Shown one piece after another: positions 11,251-60,865 of a stretch of 64,000 nucleotides of DNA. Below the pieces are notes generated by a model. The model did not search any database and was not told the origin of the DNA. It saw only the letters and a program-made list of their open reading frames with translations. A program made the position numbers and the translations under genes. Location: positions 16,214,485 to 16,278,484 of the forward strand of contig NC_134027.1 in the NCBI RefSeq assembly GCF_964204645.1. Direction: 5' to 3'. This DNA comes from Tubulanus polymorphus (lineage: Eukaryota > Animalia > Nemertea). Each line of letters begins with the position of its first letter. The stretch's first letter is position 1.

Positions 11251-12747
11251 TTTGTTTATATAAACCTCTGACGTCATCAGGTCACGTGATACATTCGCGC
11301 ATTTTCAGTACTGTACATTGATTTTAGGCAATTTTATACGCGATAATTATTACTTTATAGATTTCTAAAAATAAAAACACGGACACATTCAACTACCAAA
11401 ATGTATTTATTTTCAATCTCCAAGACCTGTTAACTCAAATTCTAGAACTACTTTAATCACTTACAAATGAAAATGGAATTTTCCATTATTAATTTAGGGA
11501 GTAAGTACATACATTTCCTTGAGTAGTGATTTATGTATATAAAAAATGAAACGTATACTTTCAGCCGGAACAAATTACTGAAAAAGAGTCTGTTATGGTA
11601 GGTGTGACCAGATGATTGATATTAGGGATATTGATTTATTGGTTTATTGTTTGGAATTGTGTGCAATATTAAAAGGTTTTATAAATTTGTCTCATTCCAG
11701 ATCAATGTTTTGAAGTACAGATCAGGGGTTACCATGGTCGAAATTAGAAAGAAGATTGGACAAAACCTGAAACAGTATAAATCGATGAAGTAAATCTGTA
11801 AATATTTGAAAATAAAATTCCCATTAACATGTACACAAGTGAGTTATTACATTTGCTTGGTAATTTTGAAACTACATTTCGTTTTGCCATTATGTGGATC
11901 TCCTTTCAGGCAATGAGTTTTTAGGAAATTGTGAAGTTTGGATAAAACATCATGTCCAGAGAAAGAAGTGGTCAAATTTTGACCATTATGAATGTGTATT
12001 TATACCACTTCGTGAATAGTCGTGTGGAGCCTGAACAATGAGGATGACTGCAGATCACATGCGTTTTAAATCACACATGAATGTGTTATATGACATGTGT
12101 GATTCACATTCAGGGCTGTATCACACGTGTGATCTTTTAAATCACACGTGTGATAATGTCCCATTTTTACACATTTGAATCACACATGTTTTTTGTAAGG
12201 GAGAGCAGGGATGAGATGCTATTGCCATAAAATCTGTGGTATTCGATGACTTAAGTACCAGAATGTCAGCATTTGCGTGGCCCGAAGCATTTATAGGGGG
12301 ATTATGGGGTCTGGCCCAGAGAAAATATTAGAAATTAGAAGTGTTTTCCTTGCGTATAACGAATCCATAACAACCACCATATCTTTTCCATATTTCTAAT
12401 GTGGCACCTCCACATTCCATTGACAATCAGCATCTCAAGCAGTACATGTCAAGCCCCTGGATTGTTGTTTTTTAAATGTGCCGAAGACATGACTACTGTT
12501 GTCACATGCCTGCAATCAATTATATATATACTTGTATATTTTCGTATACAGAAATCTGCGGAATTCTCATCCCATCTACAGAGGGTGATATCACAAAATT
12601 TCTGCAGGGAATTCTCTTCCCATCTGGTGGGTGATATCAAAAGTTGATGTGTGCGATCCAACCAGTTAAGGATAATGGCTATGTTTTTCCAAGAAAATTC
12701 ATATGTAAGAAAAACGCTTATGGGTGACACAGCTGGAGAACTGTTAC

Positions 12748-12879
12748 CTTTTCTTGCAGATCTTCTAATTGATTTTGATGTTCAGCCACTGCTAATTCAC
12801 GTTCAGCTGTTATCTGTACACTTTCTCTTAAAGCTTCTTCCAATTCTTCGATACGCTCTTCATTCTGCTTAATTATATT
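12748..12879 (-). CDS. ERC1: ERC1/2 (ELKS/CAST) coding exon
   Basis: AG..GT bounded 132-nt exon encoding NIIKQNEERIEELEEALRESVQITAERELAVAEHQNQLEDLQEK; RIEELEEALRESVQITAERE is the conserved ELKS motif; phase matches exon 56530-56665. Confidence 0.93.
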
Positions 12880-15461
12880 CTATAAACCAAACAAATACAC
12901 AAAAAGCCGTAATAAACAAATGCTAAACAATTAAGGCATATAATAAACAATAATGGTGCTGTCAAAAAGAAAATTATGAATAATTATGAATAATAATTAT
13001 GAATAATCTAAAAAATTTTATTGTAAGGAAAATTCAAAGATTGTGGGCAAAATATGAAATGAATGCGAAAAAGAAAAAAGACAAAAATTATTTTCTTCTA
13101 ACCATGTTCTATAGCCTGAGGTCTCTTAACAATGCAATAATTACATGCATCTGAATATAGATCAAATAGTGCTTTCTTTCTCAGAATGCTTTGTATGGTC
13201 TCATTAAGTAGTCACCATAGTTTTTGATACCAGAAATCATATCCTATAAAACTAAGGGACCAGGGACAAATGCCCAATTGGGGGGTGGTTTGAAATGCAA
13301 AAGAAACCTCAAAATTTCAATATTCAATCCCCCCGGTGAACATGAAAGAGGCATAGGATAACTATTGGGCGCTTACTTCCTGATACGATACGATGAGCTA
13401 TATCAAAATCAGCTTTCTGAAGCGAGAGGAACTTTCATTTTTCTCAGTTAAAAAGATTTTTCACATCACCACTGAATCAACACAATCCTTGAATATTCAT
13501 GTAACTAGATGCTCATTTCTAACAATCCACAGCTAACATAATCAGAAATATATAGCTCTTAACTAGGAGCTAAATATTCCATGACTTGTATGATCAGAGC
13601 CCTCTGAGCGTACATGTCGCCCAACCTAGTGTTTCACAATATGCATCAGAACCAATATAATAAACACATAAATTGTACATAATTCAATATTCCACCATAC
13701 CAAGACAACAGGGGGCCTGGGGATCTCCCCAAGAAGATTTTCAAAAATGAAGCCCACTAAATGCATCTTAAAGTCATGACACAACCATCCACTTTCAGGC
13801 ATAACCAGCAGAGATCAATTAGAGAGTTGTTATACAATCAAAGTTTTTAAAACAACATATTAACTTTTTGTGTGGACACAAAATGAGACAAAATTAAACA
13901 GCTGGCCTGAATGATCTTTAATACAACGATCCACTTTCAAGCACAAACAACACCAGATTTTGAAAATTAGAAATAGTAATAAACAACCAGTTTTTTAAAC
14001 ACTATATTAATATTTAAACCCATAGAGAAAAAAGCTAGCCCAAATCACACCCACATTGATATCCATACCTCTCTCTTCAGTCAAAATAGTATTTGAGAGC
14101 GCTGAATCTTACGTGGGAAATCCTGTTTTTCGAATGAGAACAAAAAATATTTTAAGACATAACGCACTAAAAATGTCGATCCAGAATTTATCCTGACACT
14201 TTTAGGAGGAAACACATGCACCGCACTCCCCTAAATCTGTCCCTGAAAACCTGTTGATTTTTTTAGACAAAACCTTTATCCATCCACGAATGCAGACTGG
14301 TGACACTAAGATAGACAGAGATTGCATGACAATTGATTGATCAAATAATTTGCCACAGGTAAAGCGGTTTACCTTTCTAGTATCTAGAAGAACGTACAAT
14401 TATACATGTATTCATTTTAAAAGTTTTCACTTGCGTGTTGTTAGTTTTGGTTTAAATATGTCCAAAAAACTATAAGGGCTCTGGAAAGCATGACACAAAA
14501 TTTGACATTGGCAATTCTTTGTATTTAGCATAAAAATCCAGGAAGCCAATTAAACAGTTCCGAAATTCTCATTTTAGGCCTACCAGCTCATTTTCTTCCT
14601 GATCAATGTGGCAATATTTTCCAATAGGTTTAGATTTTGTTCAATGCTCTATCCTCATTCCAGCAGTTTCAAACGGCATCTTGAATTGCAGACAGATGAT
14701 GAGACTGCACAAATACTCATCAGAGAGTGACAAACCATAGTTTATAGACTTTTTGAAACTGCCATATAATATATTTTTAGAACAAATAAACGTTGAATAT
14801 TGTATCATACGGGGATCCCCTACAATGTTGAGGTGTCCGAACTGGATATTTTCTGAAAATTGATCAAAATGTAGGTGAAGAAAATAAAAATATCAAAACT
14901 TTATTGGCAATGAGACCTGACTTTGTAATCCAAAATCAGAATTTTTGCTAGTATGGCCATTCCTCCAGCTTTAAGGGGCAATCATTGCGATACGCCCAAG
15001 AAACAAACAGTTTCGAGGAGACGAATGTTCAAAGATTCCCGTCTCCCTGTACTCCTGTCAAGCGGGCCTCTCATTTAATGAGTACACCAATTGATTTGTA
15101 CGGAGACAAAACACAAATGTGAGTACCGCGTGTTTGGCTGCTAAGAAGCTAGTAAAAGGCTCAAAAATAGCCCATTGACGACATTGGTGAGTATCAATTT
15201 TCAAAATTTCAATGCACAAGGAATCTTAATTTCATTTCACTACTTGAAATATTTATAATTCATTATGTGGAATAATAACAAGATAACGCTCCCTTTTAGA
15301 AAAAAGTTTGTTCAACAATAAATGAAATGAACCTTACAAGAATAGGAATGAAGAAAGGCAGCACAAGTGAGAAAACGAAAGAGTTTGTGAATAGTGTATA
15401 TTGTTATATATCTGTTTATTTCTTAGAGGTTAAATTTAGGTAAAAGTCTTTGGCGTGAGGT

Positions 15462-15897
15462 TCAACCCAGTTTTTCTGCTATTTTTTTCAAAAAGTCAAC
15501 TTTTGCCTTATTAAGAGGTAGAGGGTATTCACTGTACAAAGGCTTTGTTTGAAGGGGTAGATCGTCCAAATCCAATCCCTCTTTATGATAATCAACCTTC
15601 ATGGGTGTATTAGTTAAATCGTATGAAGCTGACGACACGCCGTACTGCTGTGATTCACGGTCTGTAAAAGAGAAGCAACTTTGGATTAGAAGCATGTGGA
15701 ATTTTTTTTCTAGAAAAAAAAACCTCAGTTAATTAACTAATTTACCTGGATCTGACCATTCAAAGCCTCTTTCCTGGTTCCAAAATTAATCCATTTTGTG
15801 TCTGCCAATACTGTTGGTATTGCTGAATTTTCAGCTTTTCCATTGGAAAAGACTTAGCCATGAACGAAAGTCGTGAAATTCATCTTGTTGTACCCGG

Positions 15898-15928
<31 letters not shown>

Positions 15929-16760
15929 TGAATACGACCTTTTACTTTTACTTAACCATAAAATACTTTGCCCGCTGCAGTTTCAGCCCAAATGATTAGG
16001 TTGTCAGCACCTAAAGGAAAAGATATGAATGTACTTTATATCGGGTTACTATCAATTGAAACAGTACTCTATAGAGAATATGACATTTGAAAAATCAACT
16101 TACCAGTGTTCCCGTAACTAGTTTTATTCAACATAACATCAATCATGCTGATTACTTCATCATCCCCTTTACCAGCGGAATACATGAAACACTTGATGTT
16201 TTGGTGGAATCCAGAATAAATTCCAAAATAAAAAGTATATAATTGTCTCATGTAGTAGATTGATTGGGTTGGCATTTTTGGGCATGGTAAATTTTTCTGG
16301 ATATCAATTTGGAATGATGTGACTGCCTTTTTAAAAGCACGGTGCAAAATAACGTTTCACAAAGATAATCTGTCATACAAACAAATGCATACCCAAGGTC
16401 AGAGACCCAAACAATAGACACAAGTGCATTAACACCTGTGGCCATGTCTGAGGTAGTCCTGCGGTTTGACATTTCACATATTAATGGAATCATTCGAAGT
16501 TCCCCATGTGATAGAAAATTTTTAGCCGGTGTACCTATGCAATCCATAATATGATTTGAAGAAATACAACAAATTTAAAAGTTAAAAACTGGATTTGTTT
16601 CAGATCGGAATTTTCAAGGGGACATAACATTCGGAGATACCAACATATGAGCGAATATGAGGGAATTCTTATAACAAACACTTTGACAATGGTCATATAT
16701 GTAGAAAAGTCTGAAATGTCACATCTCTTTAGTTTTTTGAGTTGAAAATTTTTTTTTTTC
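15462..16760 (-). pseudogene. Heavily decayed DDE transposase, probably Sola-like
   Basis: Fragments IDIQKNLPCPKMPTQSIYYMRQLYTFYFGIY, GKGDDEVISMI, DNLIIWAE..AG, and C-terminal LY..PLPLNKAKVDFL; multiple frameshifts and introns; termini not identified. Confidence 0.55.
15897..15923. repeat. (AT)n microsatellite
   Basis: Perfect TA run. Confidence 0.9.
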
Positions 16761-18024
16761 AAAATAATATTTGGAGTGTTTTTTACATTTAATCTATGTG
16801 CATGTATTCTACAGGTTCTCGAGAGTGTAGGATTACAAAAATCAGATGGTCACATTGACACCATTATTAAAGCAGGTCAGCAGTACCTGAAACAAAAACG
16901 CTGCAAAAAAAGGTACAGGTAATTTAAAAAACAATGTATTTATTATCTCTATCGCCAATTAAATCATAAAAGAATAGATTGAAAATTTCAACACTATAAT
17001 ACAATACAATATCTATTTGTTGGCACGTACAATAATGTGTTTTACATTCAAATTATTGCAGCAGAAAGGTTGAGTCTCGATTCGTGGACCAGGCAACCCA
17101 GACTAATATCGATGGCCCCAAAAGGTATTGATTACATGCATGATTAAAAGAGCAATTATTTTCTACACATCATTTCCATGTGCGAGTTAAAATAAAATGC
17201 GATTTCATGTTCCACCATTATCTAAACATTGCAAATCTGAAAATCATGTTTGGAATTTTGCAGACAGACAATTGAGACTCAGACTGAGATGTCTGCAGAT
17301 GTAAGGTATTTACTCTTATCATTCAAGTGATTAGTAAAAGTGATTTATGCTAATTTTCCCTGTATATAATATAATAAAGGCTTTTAAAATTTCGTTCAGA
17401 TTTTTTACTGTGTGTAACGCTGCTGTTGAGTGAAAGTGAAAATAAACAAGAGGCCCATGGGCCTTGAAGCATTGGTAGATTATACTGTGGTATTAAGTGG
17501 TTATAATGTTTTACATCTGCCGGCAAATCTTCTATGACGATGTTGATTAGGAGGACCACAGACTTAAAGGTCTATTTGTCTTGTACGATTTTATTCCTGA
17601 AACGAGGCTATTTGTCAAGTTAAACCTCATTAATGCGATTCTGTTAAAAAGACGAAACTAGTTTATTCTGATGTTTTCCATCATGTCCCAGCCAAGATAT
17701 TTATATCAATCAAGATTTGGATACAAAAACCCATTTTTACGCATGAACTGTTAGGCCCCACTGAATAATGAAAACAAAAACAGAACAACTTTTCTGAATG
17801 CAATTGCAAGACCCTCTGATCTTAGCTCTGATGCATGTACGCATGCAAAACGTCGCAGAGAGCGATGCCGGCGTTGGTGTCACTGAGGCCGGCTGATGAT
17901 TGTTTGTGTTTTTGTTTGTTTTTCTTTATGTACGTTTGGATCTTGGTTTCCCAAGACTATTCCTATTGGATTGTTCATTTAACCTCACGACGGTACGGCC
18001 TTTGAAGTGTTGCCCGCACACTGT

Positions 18025-18117
18025 TTGCAGCCAGGAGGACTCGAACCCACTTGTCACTCAGCATTGATAGTGGATTCAACAGCATCACGCCTTATCTCAC
18101 TGAGCTACCGAGGCCGC
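18025..18117 (-). mobile_element. tRNA-derived SINE head / tRNA-like pseudogene
   Basis: Minus strand ggcctcggtagctcagtgag (A box) ... gggttcgagtcc (B box); acceptor and anticodon stems do not pair well. Confidence 0.55.
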
Positions 18118-18568
18118 TCGATTCAATTCCAAAAAACTAACTACAGCAGCGGCAAATAACCATCGCAATATTGCAATTTACGACAAACAATGCGTAAATT
18201 CAATTACTGTTGTTTAACGCATGGAAAAGATAATAAAAAGTATTTTTTCCCGGCGCGCATTGCAAAGCGAATCTCTGCCGAGTGCGTAAGAGGGTGCTAC
18301 CGCCTAATGAGTGCGCAGCAGGCGGGTAGGGCGTCCTTAAGTGAAAACTTATATTAGAATATAGCCGAATCGAATTTTACAATGTCAGTCAACTGATTGA
18401 TGATACAACATGGTTGTTCTCGGCGTACCTAACAATGATATTTTCCTCCAATAAACAACTCTGGTAAAATTGAATAAAATGATAGTAATAGGGAAAGTGG
18501 GCTTTCAGATCAGAGTACGAGAGTACCAGACACCACTCATCACCACAAGTAATTTTTTTTCCTTATAA

Positions 18569-21500
18569 ATGGGGGAGAATGAACACCAGCCAGAAAACAA
18601 TAATGTTAATAAAAATCAATATCATTGCCCATATTGTAAAAAATACATCGATAAATCTAATAAATCTAAACATGAAAAATCTTCAAATCATATAAAAAAT
18701 GTTATAGATTTTGAAACTCCAGAAAATTCCAATGAAAGAAAAGAACGATTAGAAAATATGAATGTGGATGAAATAAAATGTGAAGTTTGTGATGAATCTA
18801 TAACAAAAAGGAATTATAATAGACATCTCGAAACAGAAAAACACCGTCAAAATTTGAGAAATAATGTTTTAGGAATAGATTATTTTGATGATAAACCTCA
18901 ACAAGTAAAAAAACCAACTTCAAAAACTAAATCCATTTCAAATAAACCTTACATGGAAAATGTTAGAAATTATATTGATTCACTAGAAATAAAAGATACA
19001 ATTGAAATATTAGAAACATTACGCAGTAAAATTGGTCCTGCAGCTATTATATTTAGATTTTTTAAAGGTACACCAATAGAAGATAATAGTAAATTTAATG
19101 AAATAATAGAAAAAATACTAGATTTGATAACAGATGTTGAATATCCAAAAATTAGTATCTCTGGGAAAGTAAGTTTTTTAAAGTCAGAAGATAAAATGGA
19201 TTATAATATTCAAACACTCTCTGAAGAAATAATTTCAAAAACACAAATAAAAGAGTTAGAAAAACAAAAGTTAGAAAAAATATTAAATGAATTTAAACGT
19301 CATATTGAAGAAAGATATTTTGAGGGTTCTGGCTTAACATTGAATGAAATTATATTTTTAGATTTAAATGTTTATAATACAAAAAGAAATAAAACATCAA
19401 AAAGTAATAAAATGTTTAAAAAATGATTCAAACTTTACAACAGAAAAGGAGGATATTAAAGCATCATCTTATACTAAATTACCATTTACAACAAAAGCAG
19501 TAATAAATATTCAAAATGAAGATAATAAATGTTTTTTATGGTCAATTATTAGTTGCTTACATCCAACACAGGAAAATGTTTGTAGAATAACAGATTACCG
19601 GAAATATGAAACATTATATAAAATTGATCAATATCCAGTAACTATAAAAATGATTCCTAAAATAGAAAAAGTTAATAATTTAAAAATAAATGTATTCGAA
19701 TTAAATCAATTACCAAAGACAAAAGGTGAAAATATTAAAGATTACACATTGGAAGCTTTATATTTAACAGAATATTATGATGATGAAAATGCTATAGATT
19801 TGTTATATCACAAAAAAGATGAAAATGAACATTATATGTGGTTAAAACAAATTGATTTATTCTTCAGAACAGAAAGTGATCATCATCATAAAATTTATCT
19901 ATGTAGAAAATGTTTATCTAAATTTATGACTGAGAATACATTATTAAAACATAAAGAATTATGTGATAATAAAGATTTTTGTGAATTAATAATGCCAACA
20001 GAAAAAGATTATAAATTGAAATTTACTAATCATAAATTTAAGAATATTGTTCCATTTGTAATTTTATGGGGATTTTGAATCGTTGAATAAAGAATTAACC
20101 GATCAAGATAGAAAAGAAATATATAAAAAAAAGCAATTATTAAAATCAATGGATAAAGGAAATGAATTAAATGAAGAAACAACACAAGACCCGCCAATTA
20201 TAAATACAATTAGAAAAGTTCATCAAAGAGCTGCTGCTTATGGAATTTACATCAAATCAAATTATCCCGAATTATATGAAAGTCAATATATTTCTTTTAG
20301 AGGTGAAGATGTAGTTAATGGTTTTTGTGACAAAATGATTGAATTAGAAAGTGATTTTGCAAAATTATTAAACAAAAATAAAAGAATAGTTATGACAAAA
20401 GAAGATGAAATTGATCTTAATTATGCAACTCATTGTTGTTATTGTGAAAAACGTTTTTATTCATTTCATAAAAAAGTTAGAGATCATAATCATTTAAATT
20501 CAAAATATCGTGGAGCTGCTCATGAAGATTGTAATTTAAGAGCTAAGAAAGTTAATTTCGTACCAATATTATTTCATAATTTATCAGGCTATGATACCCA
20601 TCAATTTATAAAACAATTATCAGGGAAATTGGGTACAATTAATCAAGAAATTGAAGAATATAATGCTATGAATGGCGTAAATGTAAGAAAATATGATTTT
20701 AAACTATTAGCTAAAACATCTGAAAATTATATTTCATTTCAATTTGGTTGCATTAGATTTTTAGATTCCTATAGATTTCTAGCAAGTTCATTAGATAATT
20801 TATCGAAAAGTTTAGTTGATAATGATTTTGTTATAACTCGATATTATTATCCAAATGAACAAGATTTTAAATTATTGAGATATAAAGGTGCAATTCCTTA
20901 TTCATTTTATAAAACACACAATGATTTTAATGTAACAGAATTATTAAAAGATCAATTTTATGATCAATTAAAAGAGGAGTATGTGAAAGACGAAGTGTTT
21001 AATAGAACATTAAATATTTGGAACCATTTTAAGATGAAAAATCATGGTGAATTAGTTGATTTATATTTAAAATCAGATGTCATGATATTGGCTGACATAT
21101 TTGAAAAATTTAGAGAAGTTAATTTGAATCATTTTAATGTTGATCCTTGTTATTGCTACTCTAGTCCTGGTTTAACCTGGCAATGTGGTTTAAAATACAC
21201 AAATGTAGAATTAGATTTATTAAAAGAACCAGACATGGTTCTATTATTTGAAAAATCAATTAGAGGTGGAATTAGTGGTGTTATGGGAGATAGATATTTT
21301 AAAGCAAATGATGAATATAAATTATTATATATTGATGCCAATAATTTATATGGTTGGGCAATGATGCAACCTCAACCATATAAAATTTTTATATTAACAG
21401 AAGTTGAAAATAAAACTGATTGGGAAAGCGCAATTGCGAGTTTAAAAGATGAAGCACCAATTGGTTATTTCTTTGTAGTTGATTTAGAATATCCTGAAAA

Positions 21501-23613
21501 TATAAAGTTTAAAACAAGAAACCTACCTTATTGCCCAGAACATTTAACCGTAGATGATAGTTATTTAAGTGAATATCAGTAGAAAATAAAACCGAAAGAT
21601 CATGTTTTTACAGAAAATTAATACTTACTCAAAATAATAAATACAATTATATTGTTCATTATAGAATGTTAAAATTTTATCTAAAACAAGGAATGAAATT
21701 AAAGAAAGTACATAGATATATTGAATTTAATCAATCGAAGTGGTTAGAAAAATATATAGATTTCAATACTCAACAGAGAACAATATCTAAAACAGATTTT
21801 GAAAAAGATATTTTTAAATTAATGAACAATAGTTTTTATGGAAAAACATGTGAAAATATTAGAAATAGAAATGATATAGAATTAGTAAATAATTCTGAAC
21901 GATTGAGGCATTTACAATCAAGCCCTAGACATTTAGGAAATAAAAGATTTGAAGATTATCTAACCGCAGTAAAATTAAAAAGAACGTCAATGAAATTTAA
22001 TAAACCTATATTCATTGGTTCAACTGTTTTAGAAGTATCAAAATTATTAATGTATGATTTTTATTATTATGTTTTACAACCACTTTTTGGGGAAAAACAT
22101 ATAGAAATCTTATATTTTGATTATGTTACAGCTGACACCCCAATATTATTAAAATACAATAACCAAATATTAATTAGAAGAATTTCAGAAATAATTCCAA
22201 AGCAAAATGAACGTTATATTTCATATGGTGAAAAAGAATTAATACAAATAAATGGTTTAATGGATGTTTGGACAAGAAATGGATGGAAAAAATTAAAGAA
22301 TATTATTAGGCATAAAACAAATAAGAAAATCTATACAGTTAGAACTAAATTAGGGTTTTTTAGATGTTACAGAAGATCATAGTTTAATTAAACGAAATGG
22401 CGATGAAATAAAACCAACTGATATAAAAATTGGAGATGAATTATTACATAAAAGATTTTACCCAAGAATGAATCATATGCCATTCGACGAAATTATTGAT
22501 AATATTTATAATATAGAACCTGAAACATTAGAAGAAAAAGAATATTTTATCAAAGGATTTTTCATGGGTGATGGTTCGGCAGGTGTGTATAATTATGTTT
22601 GGAGTAATAAGTATTGTTGGTATTTATGCAATCAAGACTTGAAATTATTAGAAAGAATTAAGAAATTCTATGAAGAAGTTTATTCACATAAAACATTTAG
22701 AATCATGGATGTTATGAAATCATCAGCAGTTTATAGAATACTTGTAAATAATCCTAAAGATTTTGCTATAAAATATAATGATGAATTCTATATTCATGCA
22801 ATAGTGAACAGTAATACTTCAACAAAAGAAAAGATAGTTCCAGATTATGTATTAAATGCTAAAGATACTTTAAGAAAATGGTTCTTCATTGGATTCTATC
22901 CTGCAGATGGTTCAAAAAGTTTCAAAACCGCAAAATAATATCTTTAGCTCAAAAAGGAAAAGTTGCTATATCAGGATTGAATATATTATGCAATTCATTA
23001 GGTTTTAATATGAATATTGGATTGATTAAATGTAGAAAATGAGTTAACAGAAGAAGTTAAAGATTTATATGAAATATATAACCCAACAGATTATGTTTAT
23101 GATTTATCAACTGAAGATGGTACATTTAACTGTGGATTTCCATTAAAAACGGTCAATACGGATGCATACATACTAAAAATCAAGACAAATGACATAACAA
23201 AAGACTTAAAAACATTAAAACATTATTTTGATTTTAGCAATTATCCCAAAGATCATGAACTATTTAGCAATGATAATAAAAAGATTCCTGGTAAATGTAA
23301 AGATGAATTAGGGGGTGATGAAATGATTGAATTTGTTGGGATAAGAAGTAAAATGTATAGTTACAGAACAAAAGATCATGAAGCTAAAAAGTTAAAAGGA
23401 ATAACAAAACATGTGGTTAATAAACATATAGAATTTCAAGATTATATAAAGTGTTTATATAACTCAATTGTAATGAAACACAAAATGAATTGTTTAAGAT
23501 CAGAAGATCACGAGATGTAAATTAATGAAGTTGAAAAAACTAGTTTGAATCCATTTGATGATAAAAGGCATATTTTAGATGATGGTATAAAAACATTACC
23601 TTATGGTTATTAA
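18569..23613 (+). pseudogene. Protein-primed family B DNA polymerase (pPolB), intein-containing
   Basis: ExoI VIYGDFES (frameshifted ~20063), ExoII FHNLSGYD, ExoIII YLKSDV, motif A YIDANNLYGWAM, motif B KLMNNSFYGK, motif C YFD^TDA, KLKGI, C-terminal DDKR..TLPYGY*; frameshifts at ~19420, ~20063, ~21615 and stops at 21580, 23518. Confidence 0.93.
22122..23157 (+). mobile_element. Intein with LAGLIDADG homing endonuclease (decayed) inside pPolB motif C
   Basis: Block A YVTADTPILL, block B VTEDHSL (TxxH), LAGLIDADG-like GFFMGDG and GFYPADG, block H-like KGKVAISGLNILCNSLG, block F/G YVYDLSTEDGTFNCGFPLKTVN then +1 Thr; removing it restores ILYFD-TDA. Confidence 0.9.
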
Positions 23614-24658
23614 AATGGATCAATATCATCAAACTCGAAATCACTATTGGTTTCTTCTTTTTCATTTAATTGTTCTTGTATAATTTGTTTAGGTTCTTCC
23701 ATTTCATTTTTCTCATTTAAATAAAGTTCTATCTTGTACCACATTTCATCTAGCTCTCTTTGTTTCTTTTTGTTCGTTAATTCATCAAATGGAATTATAA
23801 TATCGATGTTTAAATAATTTACAATCTTATTTAAAAAGAATTCATAATTAATTGAATCTGTTATTCTATTATCCACATAATATCTTAATATTTGTTTGAA
23901 TGTTTCTTTTATATTTTCCATATCTTTTTCTGTTAATTTAGGTTTTTTATAATAATCGTTAAATAATAAATATAAATACATTTTCTTTTCTTGTGTGTTA
24001 AATGTTGATGGAATAATTGTTTTTATTATATCTTTTTTAGTTATTTCACCATTTTTATTTTCTATTATTTTCATTTTTTCAAGCCATTGCTTATATTCTG
24101 GTGTATGATCTTCCATAGAAAATATCTTAAATATTTCATCTAGATAATTTAATTTTGGTTCTATAAGAATATTTCTAGTTTTTTCATCACCCCATAAATT
24201 CTTTTGCCATCCACATTCATTACAAAATATCACCTTCTTGTCTTAAGTACTCATAAATACATTTTGGGCATTTTTGTCTATCATTTCTTAGTAATAGATC
24301 ATCGTTAAGCTCTTGGTATTTTCTTACGTTTTCTTTATGTTTTATTGTTCTATTATGTAGATTTGAATTACTTGTTGTAATAATCAATTTACAATATTTA
24401 CAATAATATGTTTTTCTTGTTAATTAATTATATTGTTTTTCTAACTTTTCAACTGTTTCTTTATTATCTGGTAACGTTTTCTCATATTTTATTTTTTCTA
24501 ATAAACTATTTTTTCTTTCATTGAATTCTGCTTCAAATTTATTAGAAATTTTATCTATATGTATTTTACGAAATTGATGATTCTCCCAAGCTTCTATATT
24601 TTCAGGACTAAATTTCATTCGACAAAGCTCGCAGAAATGATCTTTCGTATTAACACAT
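23610..24658 (-). pseudogene. Polinton hypothetical protein with N-terminal Cys/His zinc-finger-like motifs
   Basis: ORF pieces 24424-24618 and 23610-24233 plus FCELC..H, YCKYC..H..H, CPKC/CNEC motifs; acidic C-terminus; disrupted. Confidence 0.6.
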
Positions 24659-24877
24659 TATTAATTATATTTTCACATTAAACTCAAATTAATTTGAGTT
24701 TATATTACGCGGTAACCAATAAAGAAAAATTACATCTATACAAACCTAAATTATCAGATTATTATACCCCAAGTAAAGAACAACAGAAATATGAAATAAT
24801 ATGGATTTTAGGTGGAACAGTTATTGTTATATTTGTAGCATATAAATTTACTAATTAGTAATTTTTTTTCTAAATAA

Positions 24878-25305
24878 ATGGATGATAAAGTTGATAATAT
24901 TGATATTATTCCTCATGATAAATAAATAAAACAAAATTAAAAATATATTTAGAAAAACAAATATTAGAATTTGAAAATGAATTAAAAATTAAAAAGAAAA
25001 AATATTTAAAAAGTAAAATTATATATTATTTGATTAAAGTGGTTCGGTTACAATTAGTTCTGTAATAACATTTCTAGCAATATTCAGCCCACCTTTAGCT
25101 ATATCAATTGGCGTATTAGGATTAAGTTCAAGTGTATTAACCGGTATAAGTTCAAAATTAGATATAAAAAGTAATAAAGAAAAAATTAAAACTAATATAA
25201 AAGAAATTAATAAATTAAAAAATACACTAGATTATATAATAAGTTTAAATGGTCATATAACAGTTGAAGAACAAGATAAATTATAAAAAGAATTAATAAA
25301 TTATT
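24878..25305 (+). pseudogene. Small Polinton coiled-coil + two-transmembrane protein, disrupted
   Basis: TAAATG start; hydrophobic stretches VTISSVITFLAIFSPTLAISIGVLGLSSSVLTGIS flanked by K/E-rich helices; frameshifts. Confidence 0.5.
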
Positions 25306-25323
25306 AATTTTTTAATTATATAA

Positions 25324-26288
25324 ATGGTAGATAGTTTTCCAAAAGCTTTCCAATATTATAAATCAATTAAATATAATATTCCAGCAATAGATATTAATAA
25401 AGATATTTCATATAGAAATGAAGTTTTAAATTCATTAATTGATTTATATATTTATGTTACTGAAACTAATTATTTTAATGTTAAGATGGAAAATATATTT
25501 CATGTGCATACAATTAATTTCAAAAATTTAAATGAGGCAAAACAATGGTTATTAAAAGAACACTAAATTGGAATGAATTACCAAAATATTATAATAATAT
25601 ACAACAACAAAACAATAATGGTTGTATTAATTTCATTTTAGAAAAAAGTGAAGGTTTTACTAAAGCTGGAATACAAAGAATAAATCAATCTATTAGAACT
25701 TATTTAATTTGTATTTTAGGCGCGCAAGTTGAAACAAGATCCCCAATAATTGGAAATTTTAATACATCATTTGATATACAGAAACAATTTAAAGTATTAT
25801 TTGAAGATTCAATTCATAATGATAAAAATAGATCGATTCCAGAAAACATTGTAAGATATCAAAATTATTTAGATAAATCTCATGTAAGACTAAATTATTG
25901 CATAGGCCCTAATCTATTAATTATTTCTAATGATTTAGTATTAAAGATGGGAAATATAATTGGTTATAATAATCTAATTAAAACTGCAACAATAAATAAT
26001 TCATTTGGATTGAATGATATAAATAAAAAGATTATTACTGCTCCAAAATTAATGGAAGGTGAAAAAAATAAAAAACATATTCAATCAACAGAAACTAAAA
26101 CTAAGAATATTAAATTGAATAATGATTCTAAAATAAAAGATTACAATACATCAGAAGATATAAAAACTGATAATATTCAACATGAAATAATTAAACTAAA
26201 TGATGATAATAAATCCCATGAAAATGCTAAATTAGCTTTAACTTGTATAGGAATTGTAATCGGAGGAATATTATATTTTAAATTTTAA
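25324..26288 (+). pseudogene. Polinton hypothetical protein with C-terminal membrane anchor (one frameshift)
   Basis: Overlapping ORFs 25324-25566 and 25545-26288; GFTKAGIQRINQSIRTYLICILGAQ core; ends ALTCIGIVIGGILYFKF. Confidence 0.6.
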
Positions 26289-26298
26289 TTTTTTTATT

Positions 26299-27740
26299 AT
26301 GTTAATGGCAGAAGGTGGAGGAGATTTCGAAATACAAGGCACGGGAAATAATAATGAAGGATATATTGATGATGATTATAATGATGATGAAACAAGTTTT
26401 AGTAATGATAATAAAACAGAATATAATTCTAATTTAACTACACCTGAATATATTGATAAAACACGTTCAAAGATAAATATTGAAAATGAAGTACCAGAAT
26501 TTGCAAAAAAAAGATTACAAATATAATGAAATTATTCGTAAATTTAAACCAATATTAGAAAGATCTGGATTCAATATAACAAATAAAGGTGTGAATTATT
26601 TAGTAAAAGATTTGAAATATTTAAATGGTGATTATTATTGGAATTTTAAAGATGACTATTATTTTACGATTTCTTCTAATAAAAGTCTCAATAAAATAAT
26701 AACAAAATCAACTTTTATTAAATTAGAACAATCTACAATTACGAAATTCAATAATGATGTTATAACTGATGTTACAAAAGAACTAGAGATAACTCTAAAT
26801 AGAAAAGAATTTAATCGAAGAAATGATGATTTTTTGAAGATAATTAATGAAAATTTAGAACCAGAAACAATTCCTAAAGGAGATATTAATTCCAAAACTA
26901 GTAAACATAAATCAACCGAAGTTCAAACTGAAAAACTTTTACAAAATGGGTTACTTGATGCAACAGATCAAGAATTAGAAGATTTAAATATATTTTCTGA
27001 TGAAGCAATTAGAGAAATTATTAGTATAAGAAATAAAGCTGATAAATTGCGCATAATAAAAGTATAAGAGATATTAAAATTAGAACTTAAGAAAAAGAAT
27101 TAATGATAAAAATAAAGAAATAAAACAATTAAAGTCTGATCTTGATCGTCAAGTAATTAATGAAATGGTATATAGGCAAAAAGAATTACGTTTAGAAAAA
27201 GAAATTGATATTTTAGAATATAACATAGAATTACAAAAAGAAGAAATTAAATTATTATTAAAATCATATGATTATAATATAAATAGATTAAAAGTTATTT
27301 TTAAAGATTTATTGATAAAACCAAATTCTGAAATATCACTGAAAGATAGAATAAATTTGTTATTTAAATTAGAAGGAATCACAATTCTTTCAATTCTAAC
27401 AGCTGTAACTATGTTATTTACAACAATAGGTTTAGCTATATCAAATTCACTGAAATCTACTCCTACTCCCAATAAACCGGATAAACCCCCGAATGATAAT
27501 AATTCTATACAAGATAAAGTTAAAGATGGTTTAAAGAAATTAGCAAAATATTTATGGGAACTATCTAAAAAATCTGCTGCAGCTTTACCAGGAATTATTG
27601 CATCAATTGTTGGTTTTATATTAAAATCTGCAGGAAACATTATTAACTTTGCTGCTGAACATATTATTTTATTTTTAATTACAGTTGTAAGTGCTATTAT
27701 TTTTGGGTTAGTGAATATGATACCAAAAAATATCAAGTAA
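26299..27740 (+). pseudogene. Polinton coiled-coil membrane protein (function unknown), frameshifted
   Basis: Three successive ORF pieces: acidic MAEGG start, long coiled coil, then hydrophobic/amphipathic helices ITILSILTAVTMLFTTIGLAI, LPGIIASIVGFIL, IILFLITVVSAIIFGLV. Confidence 0.65.
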
Positions 27741-27780
27741 ACATGATAAAAAATAAATAATTAATTTTTTTGTTAAATAA

Positions 27781-27975
27781 ATGAGTGGGCGTTATATCAA
27801 TCCTTCTAAGACTCATAGAATATCTAATGCTATTAAAGCAGAAAGATCACATCATATAATTACTCATAACCCTTCTAATATTAATCCCGATGAAACTTTA
27901 TATGTTAGAATCCCTAGATTAACACAAAATACTTTTTATGTTCCAAATAGTATTTATTTATCAGCAAAATTTAGT
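27781..27975 (+). pseudogene. Major capsid protein N-terminus (truncated)
   Basis: INP..R...IKAERSHHIITHNPSNINPDETLYVRIPRL....YVPNSIYLS resembles the N-terminus of invertebrate Polinton double-jelly-roll capsid proteins (recognition from memory). Confidence 0.65.
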
Positions 27976-28713
27976 TAAATATAAAGATATAAATGAATTT
28001 ATGTTAGAACAACCAACATACACAACACATAAAAAAATTGTTAGAAAATATAAAACTCGTAAAACTATGGTAAGTTATGTAGATCAACAGTGGCAAGGAG
28101 ATTTAATTGATATGAAAAATGTTAAGAAAGATAATGATGATTATTGGTGGATATTGAATATAATTGATATTTTTAGTCGTTATGTATGGAGTTTCCCACT
28201 TTATAGAAAAGATGCTGTACAAACATCAAATGTTTTAAGAAAATTTCTTTCGGATGATAAACTAAAACCAGAAAAAAATACAATTTGATGATGGAAAAGA
28301 ATTTGATAATTCACTTGTTGATGAACTCTTAGACAATCATAATATTAAATATTTTTCAACAAAATCGGATAAAAAAGCAGCAGTTGTTAAACGATTTAAT
28401 AGAACATTAAGAACAAGAATGTGGAAATATTTTACAGCAAATAATACTTTTAAATGGATTGATGTTTTACCAAAATTGATAGAAGGATATAATAATTCTT
28501 ATCATTCTTCTATTGGAATGAAACCTATTGATGCTAGAAAACCTGAAAATGCTGAAATTGTTTGGAATAATTATATGGAGCATTTCTTGTAGATGATTTT
28601 GGTGAACCTAAATTTAAAGTTGGTCAAAATGTTAGAATTTCTAAGTATAAAAAGATATTTGACAAAGGATACGATCGAAATTTTACTAGGGAAATATATA
28701 AAATAAAAAAAGG
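27976..28713 (+). pseudogene. Polinton retroviral-like (rve) integrase, catalytic core
   Basis: YTTHKK..RK, WQGDLIDM, IDIFSRY, IQFDDGKEF, KAAVV(K)RFNRT, YNNSYHSSIGMKP, PKFKVGQNVRISK..FDKGY..NFT.EIY; one frameshift at ~28280. Confidence 0.9.
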
Positions 28714-29059
28714 TAAATATAGCTGCAAAGCAGCGATAACGGGCTTTCTGCACAGTCTTAGAATCCTGTTCAACGGTGGATTTTGACGAAGCATTTGATA
28801 AGGCACAACATCAGCCATTACTAAACAGGCTATTAGGAAACAGTATCAATGATAGGTCGCCCAAATGGCTCAGCAGTTATCTCTGAACGAAAAATTGTAG
28901 CTGAAATCAACGGAACGCCTCATCTTGGAATAATTCGGTCAAACTAGTGGAGTCACGCAAGGTAGTATCCTTCTGTTGTCTTCTGTTTATTGTCCTGACA
29001 AATGGCATACACAGTAATCCAACATATACCAGACCTTGTAAATTTCCAAATCGACCTTA

Positions 29060-29590: not shown

Positions 29591-30447
29591 ATTTCTGGTG
29601 CTCCGCAGTAACTTAAAGCCAGACGTTGGTTGTTCTTGTGACACAATGCGATCCTCGCGTTGCATCGCAAGTTTCGATGCAAGTCGCTTGCAATACGATT
29701 GTGTGCGACTAGTTTCTGCCAGTCGCAAGAGCGCGTCGGTTGGTTGTGACAGTCGTGTCACGTCGCAGAAAGTAGAACACGTACGACTCCATGTGACTGG
29801 CGTTGCTGAAAGATGAGGACGCCAGTGATATGACGACTGAGTCAAAACGTCACGATATGTCGACATATTCATGTCGAATTGATGCGATATATCGACATAA
29901 ATATGGCGACTTGTCGAGTTGGAACGCAACAACTCGAGGCCCTTTATCGCTTCCGTAGATCTTTCATTAAGTAGGATCACTTGAATGATCGCTTTAATAT
30001 CGCTTTAAAAAAAACATACCGCGATATATCGCGTCAAGTCGACATGAATATGTCGATATATCGTGACGTTTTGACGACATATTTCGTTTTCTCAACCATC
30101 AACCATTTTCCACGCAACAAGTCGACATATTCATGACGAGTTGAAACTCAGTCGTCATATTACTGGCGTCCTCATCTTACATTTAGACATGTCTTCAAAT
30201 GACGGCTTGTCCCGTGGAAAATGAGCAAATAAGCGAAATTTGTCGTGAAAACGTTACGATATGTAGACATATTCATGTGGACTTGACACGATATATCGAC
30301 ATAAATATGGCGACTTGTCGAGTTTGAACGTGACAACTCGAGGCCCTTTATCGCTTCCGTACTATATCAGATTAATCGACTTCAAAATAGGCGAAAGCAT
30401 AAGTCTTTATTACGTTATAAATTGGCCTAATTATTCAAAAGCTAATA

Positions 30448-31337
30448 ATGTGGGCGACAAAACCAAAAAAATTAATTGTCGCGGGCGATAAAACCAAAAT
30501 AATCCATTGTCGCGGGCGATAAATCCAAAATATTGAATTGTCGCGGGCGACAAAACCAAAAAAATGAATTGTCGCGGGCGATAAAACCAAAAATAATGAA
30601 TTGTCGCGGGCGACAAAACCAAAATATTCAATTGTCGTGGGGGAACAAAACCAAACTAATGAATTGTCGCGGGCGATAAAACCAAAATAATAAATTGTCG
30701 CAGGCAATAAAAACAAAAAATGAATTGTCGCGGGCGATAAAACCAAAATATTGAATTGTCGCGGGCGACAAAACCAAAATATTGAATTGTCGCGGGCGAC
30801 AAAACCAAACTAATGAATTGTCGCGGGCGATAAAACCAAACTAATGAATTGTCGCGGGCGATAAAACCAAAATAATGAATTGTCGCGGGCGATAAAACCA
30901 AAATATTGAAGTGTCGCAGGCGATAAAACCGCGACAAAAAGAAAAAAAAATTGTCACGGGCGTTAAAACCAAAATAATGAATTGTCGCGGGCGATAAAAC
31001 CAAAATATTGAATTGTCGTGGGAGACAAATCCAAAAAAATGAATTGTCGCGGGCGATGAAACCAAAATCTTGAATTGTCGCTATTGTCGCGTGCGACAAA
31101 ACCAAAATAATGAATTGTCGCGGGCGATAAAACCAAAATATTGAATTGTCGCGGGCGACAAAACCAAAAAAGAAAATTGTCGTGGGCGACAAAAACAAAA
31201 TATAAAACCAAAATAATGAATTGTCGCGGGCGACAAAACCAAAAAGATGAATTGTCGCGGGCGACAAAACCAAAATAATGCATTGTCGCTGGTGATAAAA
31301 CCAAAGTAATGAATTGTCGCGGGCGACAAAATCAAAA
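30448..31337. repeat. Minisatellite, ~31-bp unit, roughly 28 copies
   Basis: Unit gaattgtcgcgggcgayaaaaccaaaataat with internal inverted repeat tgtcgc-gg-gcgaca. Confidence 0.95.
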
Positions 31338-32424
31338 TCATTGTTTTCTCGAGTTATTTTAGTTTTGTCGTTTTGTCGTAATGTCGCCCTCATTTGCATA
31401 TTCGTGTTTTTGTATCTTATCAGCCACCATACTAAAGCTTTAAGGTCGCGTAAAACTCGATAAACACTTCAAGCGACACAGCGAACGATCTCCTTTCCCC
31501 CACCGCGAACCCTTACTCCGAATGTCAAGTGTGAGTCCAGCATACGGATAGGAGTGTGTTATATATTTGTATTTAGTAAATACCTTGTGGATTTGACAAT
31601 GATCGGTATGTACTGTAGGAAATATAGAGTATTGATGGTATTGATACAGAGGCCCGCGGCCGAATAAAGTAATATATTCTTTTATTTTGATACCTCGTCG
31701 ACATAACAGCTTTTCTCCGCTATATCTCTTCGGCGTGTTTAGTTTAGGCCTACGACTCCCCGGTACACTTATGATCTATCTTAGTAAAAACACGGTAAAT
31801 TTGGTAAAGAAAAATAGGTATTGCTAAATGAACTGCTTGACGCCCGCAGCTAAATGACTGGTAGTAATAAATTAATTTGTACTCGATTTGATTCTCAGAA
31901 TGAGGAGAAACTCGCAGCTGATTCCCGGAACGACGATGTAGTGACACACGTCGATTTGTCGATGTTTACGGCTCGACAGTGCTTTTAAAATCTAAAGTAG
32001 TAAATTTCCTGTGTATTGGTATTATAATTTGATGAGGAAAATGGGTTATTGTTAAAATTAGTTTTTAAAAACCGCGACAGAATGTGCAATCTTTGGGTAA
32101 TAAATTTGTTAATTTATGCTTGAATTGATAATCGATGTGACAAGAAACGTGCGGTAGATTTCGGAAAGACGACTTAGAAAAACATGTCGGCTCTTTGAAT
32201 GGGGCTCAATTTTCGATGTTTACGGCCCGACAGTGCTTTTGTAACGTTGATTCTTAAAAATTTGCACGGAGTATTTGTAGATTGAAGTGAGCTGAATGAT
32301 ATCAGACGGATTGTATCGGCAACAGCGGTAATGTAAAAAAGCCTATGTACTTTTGACAAAAAATGTGTGGAAAATAATAATAATAATAATAATAATAAGA
32401 AACACGCGAATCTCAATAACAACA

Positions 32425-32650
32425 AAACCATATGTCTATAAATTAGAAGATTTAAATGGTGAAGAAGTTGATGGGTATTTTTATGAAGAAGAATTTGAGT
32501 TTAACTACTGAAAATCTAGAACAAGAATATAAAATTGAAAAAGTATTAAAAACAAAAACTGTTAAAAGAAAAAAAATATTCTTTAGTAAAATGGGTTGGA
32601 TGGCCAGATAAATTCAATGAATGGATATTATCAAGTAAAATTACAAAAAA
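32425..32650 (+). pseudogene. Polinton integrase C-terminus with chromodomain
   Basis: KPYVYKLEDLNGEEVDGYFYEEE then YKIEKVLK...LVKWVGWPDKFNEWI (frameshifted). Confidence 0.85.
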
Positions 32651-32655
32651 TATAA

Positions 32656-32785
32656 ATGAATAAGGAATTATTTATATTTGAGCCTCATAATATGTTAATT
32701 TCTGGTGTAACAAATTGTGGAAAAACTTATTTTATATTAAATTTATTAGAAACTATTTATAAAAACTATTTTGATAATATAACCA
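32656..32785 (+). pseudogene. Packaging ATPase (A32/FtsK-like) N-terminus, truncated
   Basis: MLISGVTNCGKTYFILNLL Walker A directly after the integrase; composition changes abruptly at ~32785. Confidence 0.75.
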
Positions 32786-34541
32786 ACTTACAATGCACAG
32801 GGTATAAACCTATTTTAGCCATTTTAGATGGCATGATAATTCACATGGCGTCTTAAACGGTTTAAGCGTCCATGATTCAGCGAAGTTCAAACCGGTCAGA
32901 AGGCTATGCTATTCCATATTTGCAACAAGCAGTCCCGATTGCTTGTAGATATTTGAAACGGAGTAGCATCGGATCATCAAGCTCAGATTGATCGAGTTTA
33001 TTAGATTTTTTTGCATTTACCTAACACATATTGATGTACGAATGGACTTAGGCTGAAATTGCCTTGGTTAATTTTTTGCTAAAGGTCACTGTGGAATTTC
33101 AATTTCAATCCAAAACGAAAATAACGGATGAATTAATGGGATTAATTTTTCAATTTTCAAGTCTTTCAATTCCTGTAATGGTTGGTTAAGCACTACATTG
33201 ACACATACAAAAATATCTAAGTAGTGCAAAAACACGCTTCAACACGAAATATCTGGGTGCAATGACTCTTTCATGTCTTTGTCTCTAAAGTTTCTGTTTA
33301 TATGTCCGGTTAAATCACTCTGCAATTTATTGAATTGGAAACATAAACATTTGAAAACGACCCTCTTAGAAATTGGTTACTATTTACGAGTAGACACTAG
33401 AAATAGTCACTCTTATAAGTAGCCATTTTGATAAAGGTTACTAATAGTTACTATCCATTTGTAAATGTATGGTTCCCGTAGTCTACCTTTTCTAGAATGT
33501 ACACTCTCAAAACTTCACTGTTCAGAAAGTATACTATTTCAGAGTATACGGTACCAATCGTAGACTCAGAATACAACATGTTTTACAACCAGAGAATTTT
33601 GAAAACCAACCGTTTCAGAAAGTATACTATTTAAAAGTGTACAATACGAATTGTAGACTCTGAATACCAATGTTTTACAACCAGAGACTTTCGAAAACCA
33701 ACCGTTTCAGAAAGTATACTATCTAAAAGTGTACAATACTAATCGTAGACTCTGAATACCACATGTTTTACAACCAGAGACTTTCGAAAACCAACCGTTT
33801 CAGAAAGTATACTATTTAAGAGTGTACAATACGAATCGTAGACTCTGAATACCACATGTTTTACAACCAGAGACTTTCGAAAACCAACCGTATACTACCT
33901 TTTATCTAATCAACAGTGATATATTCTTATCCGTGTTATTTTGTTCAGCACGTCAACTCAGATTAAGATTGAGTTCTTAATAGCACAAATCAAGATCTTT
34001 AGTGATGTGATCTATCAAAATGCTTCACGAATGCATGTTGAAATCAACTAACATTTTTTGAGTACATGTGGTTTAGTTCAGATTCAGCTGGATCACATCA
34101 AAAACTTGGTATAAGTACATATACACATATGTGCCATGCCAACGGGTACGATTATAGAACGATAACCACAATCAAACGTGGTGAACGGATTATAAGATAA
34201 AAACCAACTATCTACAAATTAAAAGAATTTTAACATCAAGAAATTTATTTATTCGAACAATCTGAAATATATAAAATATACGACGTTTCGATCTCACCCT
34301 AGAGATCTGACACATGACGATGTTCTCTAGGGTGAGATTGAAACGTCGGGTACGATTAGTTCATGCACCTACCAACGGAACTATGAAAGCACCAAACAAG
34401 GTATATCAGCACTTTTTACGTGGTAGCCCTTGTGGAACCTGGTAACTGATAAGAATTATTTGGTGAAATCTTTGTGCCCTTCCCAGTGCTACATTTAAAC
34501 CAGCAAGGCAGAACCTGTTGTCGTTGCTTTGCAGCTATATT
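32786..34541 (-). mobile_element. atatagctgcaaagc-family repeat (HINE-like) with internal tandem array
   Basis: Minus-strand start atatagctgcaaagcaacgacaac at 34540; left boundary inferred from the ATPase truncation. Confidence 0.45.
33521..33891. repeat. Tandem repeat, 92-93 bp unit, 4 copies
   Basis: ttcagaaagtatact recurs at 33521, 33614, 33706, 33799. Confidence 0.9.
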
Positions 34542-34544
34542 TTA

Positions 34545-34834
34545 TATTATACCCAGATTTTTCAAATATAGGTTTAAAATGATGAATTAATTCATTATAT
34601 TCTAAATCTTGTTTTGTTAATTCTGGAATATCATTTTCAGGATTGATTCTCGATTTATTTATTCTATTCAAACCCCTCTGGATTATTAGAACCTGTACCT
34701 GCTAAATGAGAATCAAATGCTGTTTCATTACCATTATCAAAACTTGTGTCAGTAAAATCAGGTGGTTGTTAATCAGTTATACCAGGTTCAATGAAAGTAT
34801 CCATTCCAATATCTTCACCACCTTCTACATCCAT
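34545..34834 (-). pseudogene. Fragment of a second Polinton: paralog of the 26299 gene
   Basis: MDVEGGED...NETAF...INPENDIPELTKQDLEYNELIHHFKPIFEKSGYN aligns with INIENEVPEFAK/DYKYNEIIRKFKPILERSGFN. Confidence 0.75.
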
Positions 34835-34860
34835 TTATATAATAAAGAAATTGAGATTTA

Positions 34861-35780: not shown

Positions 35781-35849
35781 AGCCTATATTTGATGTTCTC
35801 TATTAACTGTGAACTATTAAAGCCTGATGCTCTCTAACTTGTGTATAAA

Positions 35850-56529: not shown

Positions 56530-56665
56530 CTTCAATTGTGTACTATCATCAGATATGCCATCTTCTCTCTTTCTTGCTTCCTCTAAAAGTTGGGCATTTT
56601 TCTTTTTTTCAGTTTGTTGATTTCGTTTTAAGCTTGTGAATTTTGATCGAATTTCTTTCAGTTGA
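56530..56665 (-). CDS. ERC1: ERC1/2 coding exon
   Basis: AG..GT bounded, 136 nt, QLKEIRSKFTSLKRNQQTEKKKNAQLLEEARKREDGISDDSTQLK, matching ELKS EKKKSAQMLEEARRRED; phase matches both neighbours. Confidence 0.92.
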
Positions 56666-57202
56666 CTGTAAAGACATAAAGCCATGTCAAACACTCTTTA
56701 AGGGCAAATTGTACTGTCCGTGATTACTTAACTAGTAGAAACTTCAGTATAAAATATAGTTATTTAGTATACAATGGTTGGACTGGTTCCAGTTGCGAAA
56801 AATTACGAATCCTTTTTTGCGAGGAGTTAAGTCAATACCATGCAAACTGATTTTCATCGGAAATGGTCTCTCAACGCAAATCATCCACGCAAACATACAT
56901 GACGTTAGTGAATAAGGCAACAGCCCATTGACCCGGGTAGAGACCTTGAATCACGGACCTGGATTTGGTCATTCCATAGCATGGAATGTCCAGGTGCCGA
57001 TTGAGGGATGAAAAAAAGAACTAGGGGTCCAGGGACACCATGGCCACTTGGGAGTGTTTTCAAATGCTGAACATTCTAACTGCTTCAATATTCAAAGCCC
57101 AAATAGGCCAAAACGTAGTCTTTTCAAATGAAAGATCACCACCAGTCAGCCATTTTAGATGTCATAATGATAGATTCAGATAGATTAGATACTGGGAGAT
57201 AA

Positions 57203-60718: not shown

Positions 60719-60865
60719 TTTAAAGTCAATATGATCATAAAATTTGAGTACTGTAAGGAGAAGTTGTCAATTCTAACCAATTTCTCAGTTTTGTGATTAG
60801 AAATAATGCAGTCAATTTCTAATCTTCTGCCAGGTAAGGGTGGAAGAAATAAATTTGAGTCTTAC

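Follow-up and report, generated by a model that had tools for sequence, protein, structure and literature searches.

The window analysed here, a stretch of 64,000 nucleotides from the ribbon worm Tubulanus polymorphus, very probably contains a Hint-plus-LAGLIDADG intein, lodged in motif C of the protein-primed DNA polymerase B (pPolB) of a multi-copy Polinton-like element that itself lies in an intron of the ERC gene; intact copies of the intein would splice and home, and a single entry from giant viruses is likely. Judged by its sequence, the insert is a canonical intein of the pol-c class, and its position is an insertion site with contiguous empty alleles. An intein is excised from its precursor protein with rejoining of the flanking exteins; its LAGLIDADG domain cleaves alleles that lack it, into which it is then copied by repair. 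The intein class is known. Its host is new: the polymerase is protein-primed and belongs to an integrating element that an animal genome passes on. The sequence-only reading of this stretch had predicted a selfish splicing element in a virus-like transposon in an animal intron, and our analysis supports it with one qualification, namely that the interrupted gene belongs to the element and not to the animal host.

The insert and the polymerase that carries it

The pPolB identity of the gene is given by PF03175, and its motif C is split by an insert of 1,036 bp (345 codons plus 1 base). Three-frame translation and the motif map place HIEILYFD at 22098-22121, the insert directly after it, and the resumption of the polymerase, with TDAYILK, at 23158. 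The features of the gene are listed below; P0001 and P0021 are relatives described in the next section.

18569..22121, + strand: pPolB N-extein with zinc fingers, motifs A and B and the first half of motif C (PF03175, E 2.5e-16; tblastn with P0001 and P0021)
near 20434-20493, + strand: HNH/endonuclease-VII-like insert within the N-extein (weak endonuclease-VII-like match)
22122..23157, + strand: decayed intein with LAGLIDADG homing-endonuclease domain at a pol-c-type site (translation, TIGR01445, alignment to P0001)
22122..22383, + strand: N-terminal splicing (Hint) region, blocks A and B (TEDH) (TIGR01445, 30.5 bits; motif map)
22122-22151, + strand: block A, first residue Tyr (translation)
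22366-22383, + strand: block B, VTEDHS (motif map)
22546..23003, + strand: LAGLIDADG endonuclease region (PF14528, with E 0.002 for the window piece and scores above cut-off for intact relatives)
22546-22575 and 22882-22911, + strand: two LAGLIDADG-like helices with acidic residues (motif map)
23092..23157, + strand: C-terminal splicing region, block F YVYDLST (23092-23112) and terminal Val-Asn (translation, motif map)
23158..23613, + strand: pPolB C-extein, starting with Thr, the second half of motif C (translation, alignment to empty relatives)

Block F retains its Asp, and the terminal Asn of the insert is followed by a +1 Thr. Within the endonuclease region, KEKIVP at 22825-22842 is presumably block D-like and 22971-23003 presumably block H-like. 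Blocks A, B and F, the terminal Asn, the +1 Thr and the coordinates of the insert had all been read from the letters beforehand and were reproduced by translation and motif map, and it was likewise borne out that the insert interrupts motif C of a pPolB of Polinton type.

The piece 22122-22358 matches the NCBIfam profile TIGR01445 (intein_Nterm) at E 5.5e-7, above its cut-off of 24.5 bits, and a translation of the whole insert, its breaks bridged by X, shares 59% identity over 351 columns with the intact P0001 intein (E 4e-136); both results uphold its identity as an intein. Among Pfam profiles, LAGLIDADG_3 (PF14528) stays below cut-off on the broken window pieces, which give no match to Intein_splicing. 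That profile (PF14890) is above cut-off in P0003 and P0034 and below it in P0001, P0002, P0099 and P0131. An AlphaFold model of P0002 (pLDDT 70, from a 7-sequence alignment) was matched by Foldseek to the inteins TliVMA, PhoVMA, PI-PfuI and PI-SceI and to I-DmoI, with a best E of 4.9e-14, and a PDB sequence search returned two intein-related entries (E 0.003-0.007). A Hint domain, as proposed earlier, is thus found by profile in the window and in its relatives, and the proposed homing-endonuclease domain is recovered through its two helices and through PF14528 in the relatives.

The copy in the window is dead and is decaying within the genome of its host. Its first residue is Tyr, so that no N-terminal nucleophile is present there, and its frame changes three times, near 22360, near 22935 and at 23022-23040, the last with ~30 bases fewer than P0001. 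At the position before the final Asn the window has Val and P0001 has Ser, and five further relatives have His; related giant-virus-type inteins may have Lys, Ser or Val there too. With Tyr at its start, Val before Asn and a shifted frame, this copy does not itself qualify as active. The polymerase is broken outside the intein as well (near 19420, 20062, 21580 and 21613, with an internal stop at 23515), and the GC content of the insert (25.7%) resembles that of its flanks (24.7% and 25.6%). The three frameshifts and the dead state of the copy had both been noted by the sequence-only reading, and both hold.

Relatives, origin and spread of the intein

A search with the middle piece of the insert found 15 proteins among 581 candidates. 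The best, P0001 (1,693 aa), is an unbroken pPolB whose intein occupies the identical site and which aligns collinearly with the window gene along its entire length; Pfam tags precomputed for it already read pPolB plus intein. The other matches are the pPolB-type P0002, P0003, P0005 and P0007, nine PF00136 polymerases and one topoisomerase. Intact polymerase-plus-intein proteins, which had been predicted to exist, are P0001, P0003, P0034, P0099 and P0131. Their inteins measure 337-354 aa and keep Ser1 (kept in P0002 too), TEDH, the block-F Asp, the last Asn and the +1 Thr, and both acidic residues of the endonuclease are conserved in 5/5 intact inteins aligned.

When only the exteins were searched, 3,262 pPolB relatives matched. 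Among the best 120 listed, four hold a full intein (P0001, P0034, P0099, P0131), one has a truncated start (P0081), 112 are empty and three end before the site and are uninformative, P0081 and P0022 having been classed by hand; the named members of the pPolB family among the matches listed come from Mytilus, Pecten and Ladona. The closest empty relatives listed, P0021, P0023 and P0024, have exteins 73-75% identical to those of the window and align up to 22121 and again from 23155-23158, so that the flanks are contiguous in intein-less pPolBs and abut the insert, as the earlier reading had implied. Twenty empty alleles among the best 120 listed have Cys instead of Thr at the +1 position; this Cys and the variability of the site in empty alleles of the P0034 family possibly reflect escape from the endonuclease.

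Several further observations concern the relatives. The P0002 cluster (P0299-P0312), with 55 members, includes several ORFs of ~365 aa that consist of the intein with ~11 and 4-7 flanking residues, and several members in which TNS replaces the catalytic TDS; these may be intein-only derivatives or broken polymerases. None of 22 IMG/VR contigs with related pPolB and none of 90 further cluster members carries the intein. One locus (L179:4439-10000) has an unusually long pPolB-type ORF of 1,854 aa with neither an intein nor an extra Pfam domain. Scans of viral contigs with a single query sequence (the window piece, P0001 or the ORF at 27781-27975) yielded no relative, a degenerate pattern of the pPolB-type intein end hit 0 viral contigs, and the leads from an Atlas search were all below 0.9.

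Regarding origin, a P0002 query matched 2,118 representatives. In the best 150 of these, short pPolB-type fragments apart, nearly all are long proteins with the intein at YGD/S...N/TDS; some also carry an intein at a second polymerase site or in topoisomerase II, and 11/11 of the long intein proteins scanned are PF00136 polymerases. Giant-virus MAG contigs account for 24 of the best 80 viral loci. No pPolB was found among the at least 160 intein-bearing metagenome or viral loci listed, and 154/168 intein domain matches in the 160 loci listed lie at YxD/S. An intein tree was built under LG+G4 from 51 rows (7 pPolB, 36 pol-c, 8 other-site; chosen from 150 that were dereplicated from 266) and 358 columns. 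In it, the seven pPolB inteins form one clade (100/100), with the window adjoining P0001. This clade is nested in a larger one that joins pol-c with topoisomerase-site inteins, and two pol-c rows branch off beneath it, a placement to be read with the choice of pol-c rows in mind, which was made with a profile built from pPolB inteins and is biased toward similar inteins. The simplest reading of these sequences is one capture from the giant-virus pol-c intein pool. The intein likely came from giant viruses, with the label of most tree rows as giant-virus itself an inferred one and the exact sister group left unplaced by the tree. A distant phage match was considered as donor and rejected as too remote (27% identity). 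Many giant-virus-type polymerases hold two or three related inteins at the motif B and C sites (P0136-P0164, P0144), and related alleles occur in topoisomerase II in the same set.

In intact copies, an acyl shift at Ser1, attack by the +1 Thr and cyclisation of the Asn would rejoin YxD to TD, a canonical chemistry that is consistent with published work (PMC549080). Since rejoining YxD to TD would restore the catalytic motif, the polymerase would be dead unless splicing occurs. The freed LAGLIDADG enzyme would cleave other copies at their uninterrupted motif-C codons, and the intein, together with short flanks, would be copied in when a full allele served as repair template; a multi-copy element would offer many empty targets in one nucleus. 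After a single capture, cycles of invasion, loss and re-invasion may have followed among related Polinton lineages, as the trees suggest.

The extein tree, computed with the intein masked, comprises 53 rows (8 intein-bearing, 45 empty) dereplicated from 111. Its starred branches force at least five changes of intein state, and a single clade of the eight intein-bearing polymerases is rejected (AU p 1.3e-70); they are scattered among empty ones, and the sister polymerases of the window are empty. Within one family, that of P0034, the sequences show signs of homing. Its cluster has 136 members at 90% identity, and the 15 listed comprise seven full alleles, four full-length empty ones, one shorter empty one and three fragments. 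Full and full-length empty alleles share 97-98% extein identity, and 10/10 fixed differences between the seven full and five empty alleles fall between 7 residues before and 44 after the site, where the flanks of the full alleles match a neighbouring lineage. When full alleles are compared with eight empty ones, the difference reaches 39% and 34% in the 11-13 residues that flank the site on either side; it is 1.7% farther upstream and 0.5-0.9% in the surroundings of motifs A and B. Such a peak of flank divergence is the trace expected from homing with co-conversion, and it may record one event, because the copies of this family share ancestry. At the site, empty alleles differ from one another as well (22% and 13% vs 2.6%), so that the peak need not be due to co-conversion alone; this variability would fit target escape or earlier cycles.

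One alternative is that the intein splices and is no longer mobile, having been gained once in an early ancestor of the pPolB group and passed on by vertical descent with many losses. Three subgroups (window and P0001; P0002, P0003 and P0034; P0099 and P0131) appear on both the intein and the polymerase trees, and in pairwise comparisons the intein identity departs from the extein identity by ~7 points at most. This congruence argues against frequent long-range transfer, and the rough mirroring of the trees also fits an old acquisition followed by many losses. However, an immobile intein would require precise loss in most lineages, given that 112/117 informative relatives among the best 120 listed are empty, and it leaves unexplained why full alleles of the P0034 family have the flanks of a neighbouring lineage when the rest is nearly identical to the empty ones. 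The retention of both endonuclease acidic residues likewise speaks against it, and we consider it unlikely. Spread by homing remains the preferred reading, and a more far-reaching form of it is put forward tentatively: a living intein lineage that homes among germline Polintons, with a splicing-dependent polymerase, gene drive in animal nuclei, target escape and capture from giant viruses.

The element in the ERC intron

The sequence-only reading had placed the element in an intron of the animal's ERC gene, and consecutive, in-phase exons with AG/GT ends do flank it.

12733..12879, - strand: next ERC exon, in phase with the preceding one, closing the 43.6-kb intron
18484..28714, + strand: Polinton-like element, AT-rich (~24% GC) and internally deleted (composition; loose read ends at 18483/18484; right end approximate)
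27923..28783, + strand: the element's integrase, of retroviral type and broken (PF00665 under its cut-off, E 2.8e-5; blastp)
56530..56673, - strand: ERC/ELKS/CAST exon upstream of the element-bearing intron (Pfam Cast, tblastn with T. polymorphus ERC, AG/GT ends)
near 60865-61095 and 63104-63253, - strand: further upstream ERC exons (tblastn)

The exons match Tubulanus polymorphus ERC/ELKS/CAST at 88-98%, flanking residues included. In P0318, residue 603 falls at 56530 and the adjacent residue 604 at 12879, which puts the element within one intron. A PDB sequence search with the ERC exon gave chance matches only.

The element begins sharply at 18484 with AGTAAT, and its integrase matches those of IMG/VR pPolB contigs by blastp (E 6e-29). 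Profile and similarity searches confirmed no capsid, protease or packaging ATPase within the window copy, and no right terminal repeat or long inverted repeat of the element was found in the window; the copy is therefore filed as a deleted Polinton-like element. The ORF at 27781-27975 may resemble the start of a capsid gene. An A32-like fragment at 32656-32853 lies outside the element copy.

Other repeats share the intron. The element is inserted into a host repeat of very high copy number (17445-18483, ~1,000x depth in the read run X5 described below). A second related remnant, older and more decayed, occupies 34500-36255 (-) and 32332-32853 (+); it shares 76-78% nucleotide identity with 18476-18950 and 26272-26585, with an A32-like ATPase fragment and integrase scraps nearby. 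A tandem array of a 31-bp unit (>25 copies) spans 30390-31370. Mobile DNA is further present at 38423-39388, 40018-42280, 44235-45017 and 47798-48580, the intron's mobile DNA including a DDE_Tnp_1_7 transposase and a chromodomain-bearing LTR integrase region. An exactly duplicated intron ORF, which has no profile match, may resemble a Penelope GIY-YIG end.

Sequencing reads provide a separate view of the locus. Four read runs contain ~40% of the sampled words and come from one study, possibly the source of the assembly itself; no RNA run was among those listed, which says nothing on expression. Run X5, which bears the same species label and belongs to a separate study, was mapped on 12000-24900 at 88% likeness; run X6 gave no mapped reads, which may be a false negative. 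Mean depth in X5 was 6.3 over unique host DNA (5 bins), 317 over the exteins (7 bins) and 228 over the intein (1 bin). The ratios correspond to roughly 50 copies of the exteins and 36 of the intein, rough estimates in that the five host bins were hand-picked from 30 and the filters can lower host depth. The element is present in tens of copies, most apparently intein-bearing, and the lower depth of the intein relative to the exteins hints at empty copies; among the 15 of 177 joints listed from X5, none skips the intein. At the left end, 410 reads enter out of mixed flanks (agreement 0.36), and a further 552 run on along the repeat that the element interrupts, which together fix this end at 18484; the element family is integrated at many host sites. 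Reads differ from the window in 228/229 cases at the first intein codon and in 148/222 at the first frameshift, so that the damage is largely private to the window copy.

A further possibility is that the element derives from a symbiont, a food item or a free virus and was misassembled into an animal intron. Its GC content is far below that of the host, similar polymerases exist on free viral contigs, and among the 15 of 177 joints listed from X5 none bridges the exact element junction. This origin is nonetheless very improbable, as X5 has reads over the element as well as over the ERC exon, those at the left end enter many different flanks or continue the interrupted host repeat, and the genes are decayed by scattered stops and frameshifts, with the second, older remnant in the same intron.

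Known systems and meaning

The closest known systems are the Mimivirus PolB intein and further pol-c alleles from archaea and giant viruses (Ogata et al., 2005; PMC549080), which occupy the same site in motif C, YGD/TDS. At 351 aa, the Mimivirus intein falls within the size range of the intact pPolB inteins, and it shares with them Ser as first and Asn as last residue, the +1 Thr and the LAGLIDADG domain (PMC549080). The difference lies in the host: pol-c inteins reside in PF00136 polymerases of giant viruses and archaea, whereas the present one resides in a PF03175 protein-primed PolB of an integrating element in an animal genome. Inteins in integrated viral polymerases have been described in Klebsormidium, Tetrabaena and a labyrinthulid, with viruses as intein vectors (Gallot-Lavallee et al., 2023; PMC10710043). 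That situation resembles the window, but those hosts are algae and protists, unlike the animal host here. The terms animal, metazoa, polinton and Maverick appear 0 times in that paper's main text, and two of its supplements are likewise free of them.

Adintoviruses, Polintons and Mavericks combine pPolB with a retroviral-type integrase and occupy many sites in animal genomes (Starrett et al., 2021; PMC8502044), features shared by the element described here, whereas the internally deleted window copy differs from a full adintovirus or Polinton in its unconfirmed capsid, protease and ATPase. The word intein has 0 occurrences in the searched portions of PMC8502044 and PMC11131425. In Polinton pPolB2, inserts with HNH and VSR nucleases have been reported (Jeong et al., 2023; PMC10748475), which, like the window, place homing-endonuclease-type domains inside Polinton polymerases. 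Unlike the window intein, they are described as nuclease domains only, with neither Hint nor LAGLIDADG and with no split of the active site. The word intein is missing from the main text of that paper, whose supplement could bear on the point, and it has been speculated that Polinton nuclease inserts result from intein invasions (Krupovic et al., 2024; PMC11161782, and preprint). That our insert is a non-splicing accessory domain, as in the documented Hint-less inserts of nematode and mollusc pPolB2 (PMC10748475), is scarcely credible: the penultimate His is indeed missing in the window and in P0001, but non-His residues there are common in related giant-virus-type inteins, and the insert interrupts the catalytic YxD/TD, contains the complete series of Hint blocks and shows a Hint fold.

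A 2021 review describes inteins as absent from metazoan genomes (PMC8529194), and a eukaryote-wide survey reports them from fungi, algae, protists and large DNA viruses, including four families of the latter, Iridoviridae among them (PMC5784728). Other sources contain general mentions only in the portions searched (PMC12220804, PMC3671162, PMC13768754, PMC5718144, 10.1101/299784). In the full texts covered, which are largely non-subscription papers, no account of a Hint intein turned up for either a Polinton polymerase or an animal genome; an earlier passing mention is possible.

These findings bear on the biology of both inteins and Polintons. Borne by a Polinton, an intein of canonical type is passed on in tens of copies by an animal genome, where reviews call inteins absent; it resides in a gene of the element rather than of the host, and may nevertheless mark a possible route for inteins into animal host genes. 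At the sequence level it is evidence that inteins invaded Polinton polymerases, as had been speculated, and it provides a marker for gene flow linking Polintons with giant viruses; the near-identical full and empty alleles offer a natural system for studying homing and target-site escape. If the intein is indeed a living lineage captured from giant viruses, these animal-type Polintons or their ancestors would have replicated in cells shared with giant viruses.
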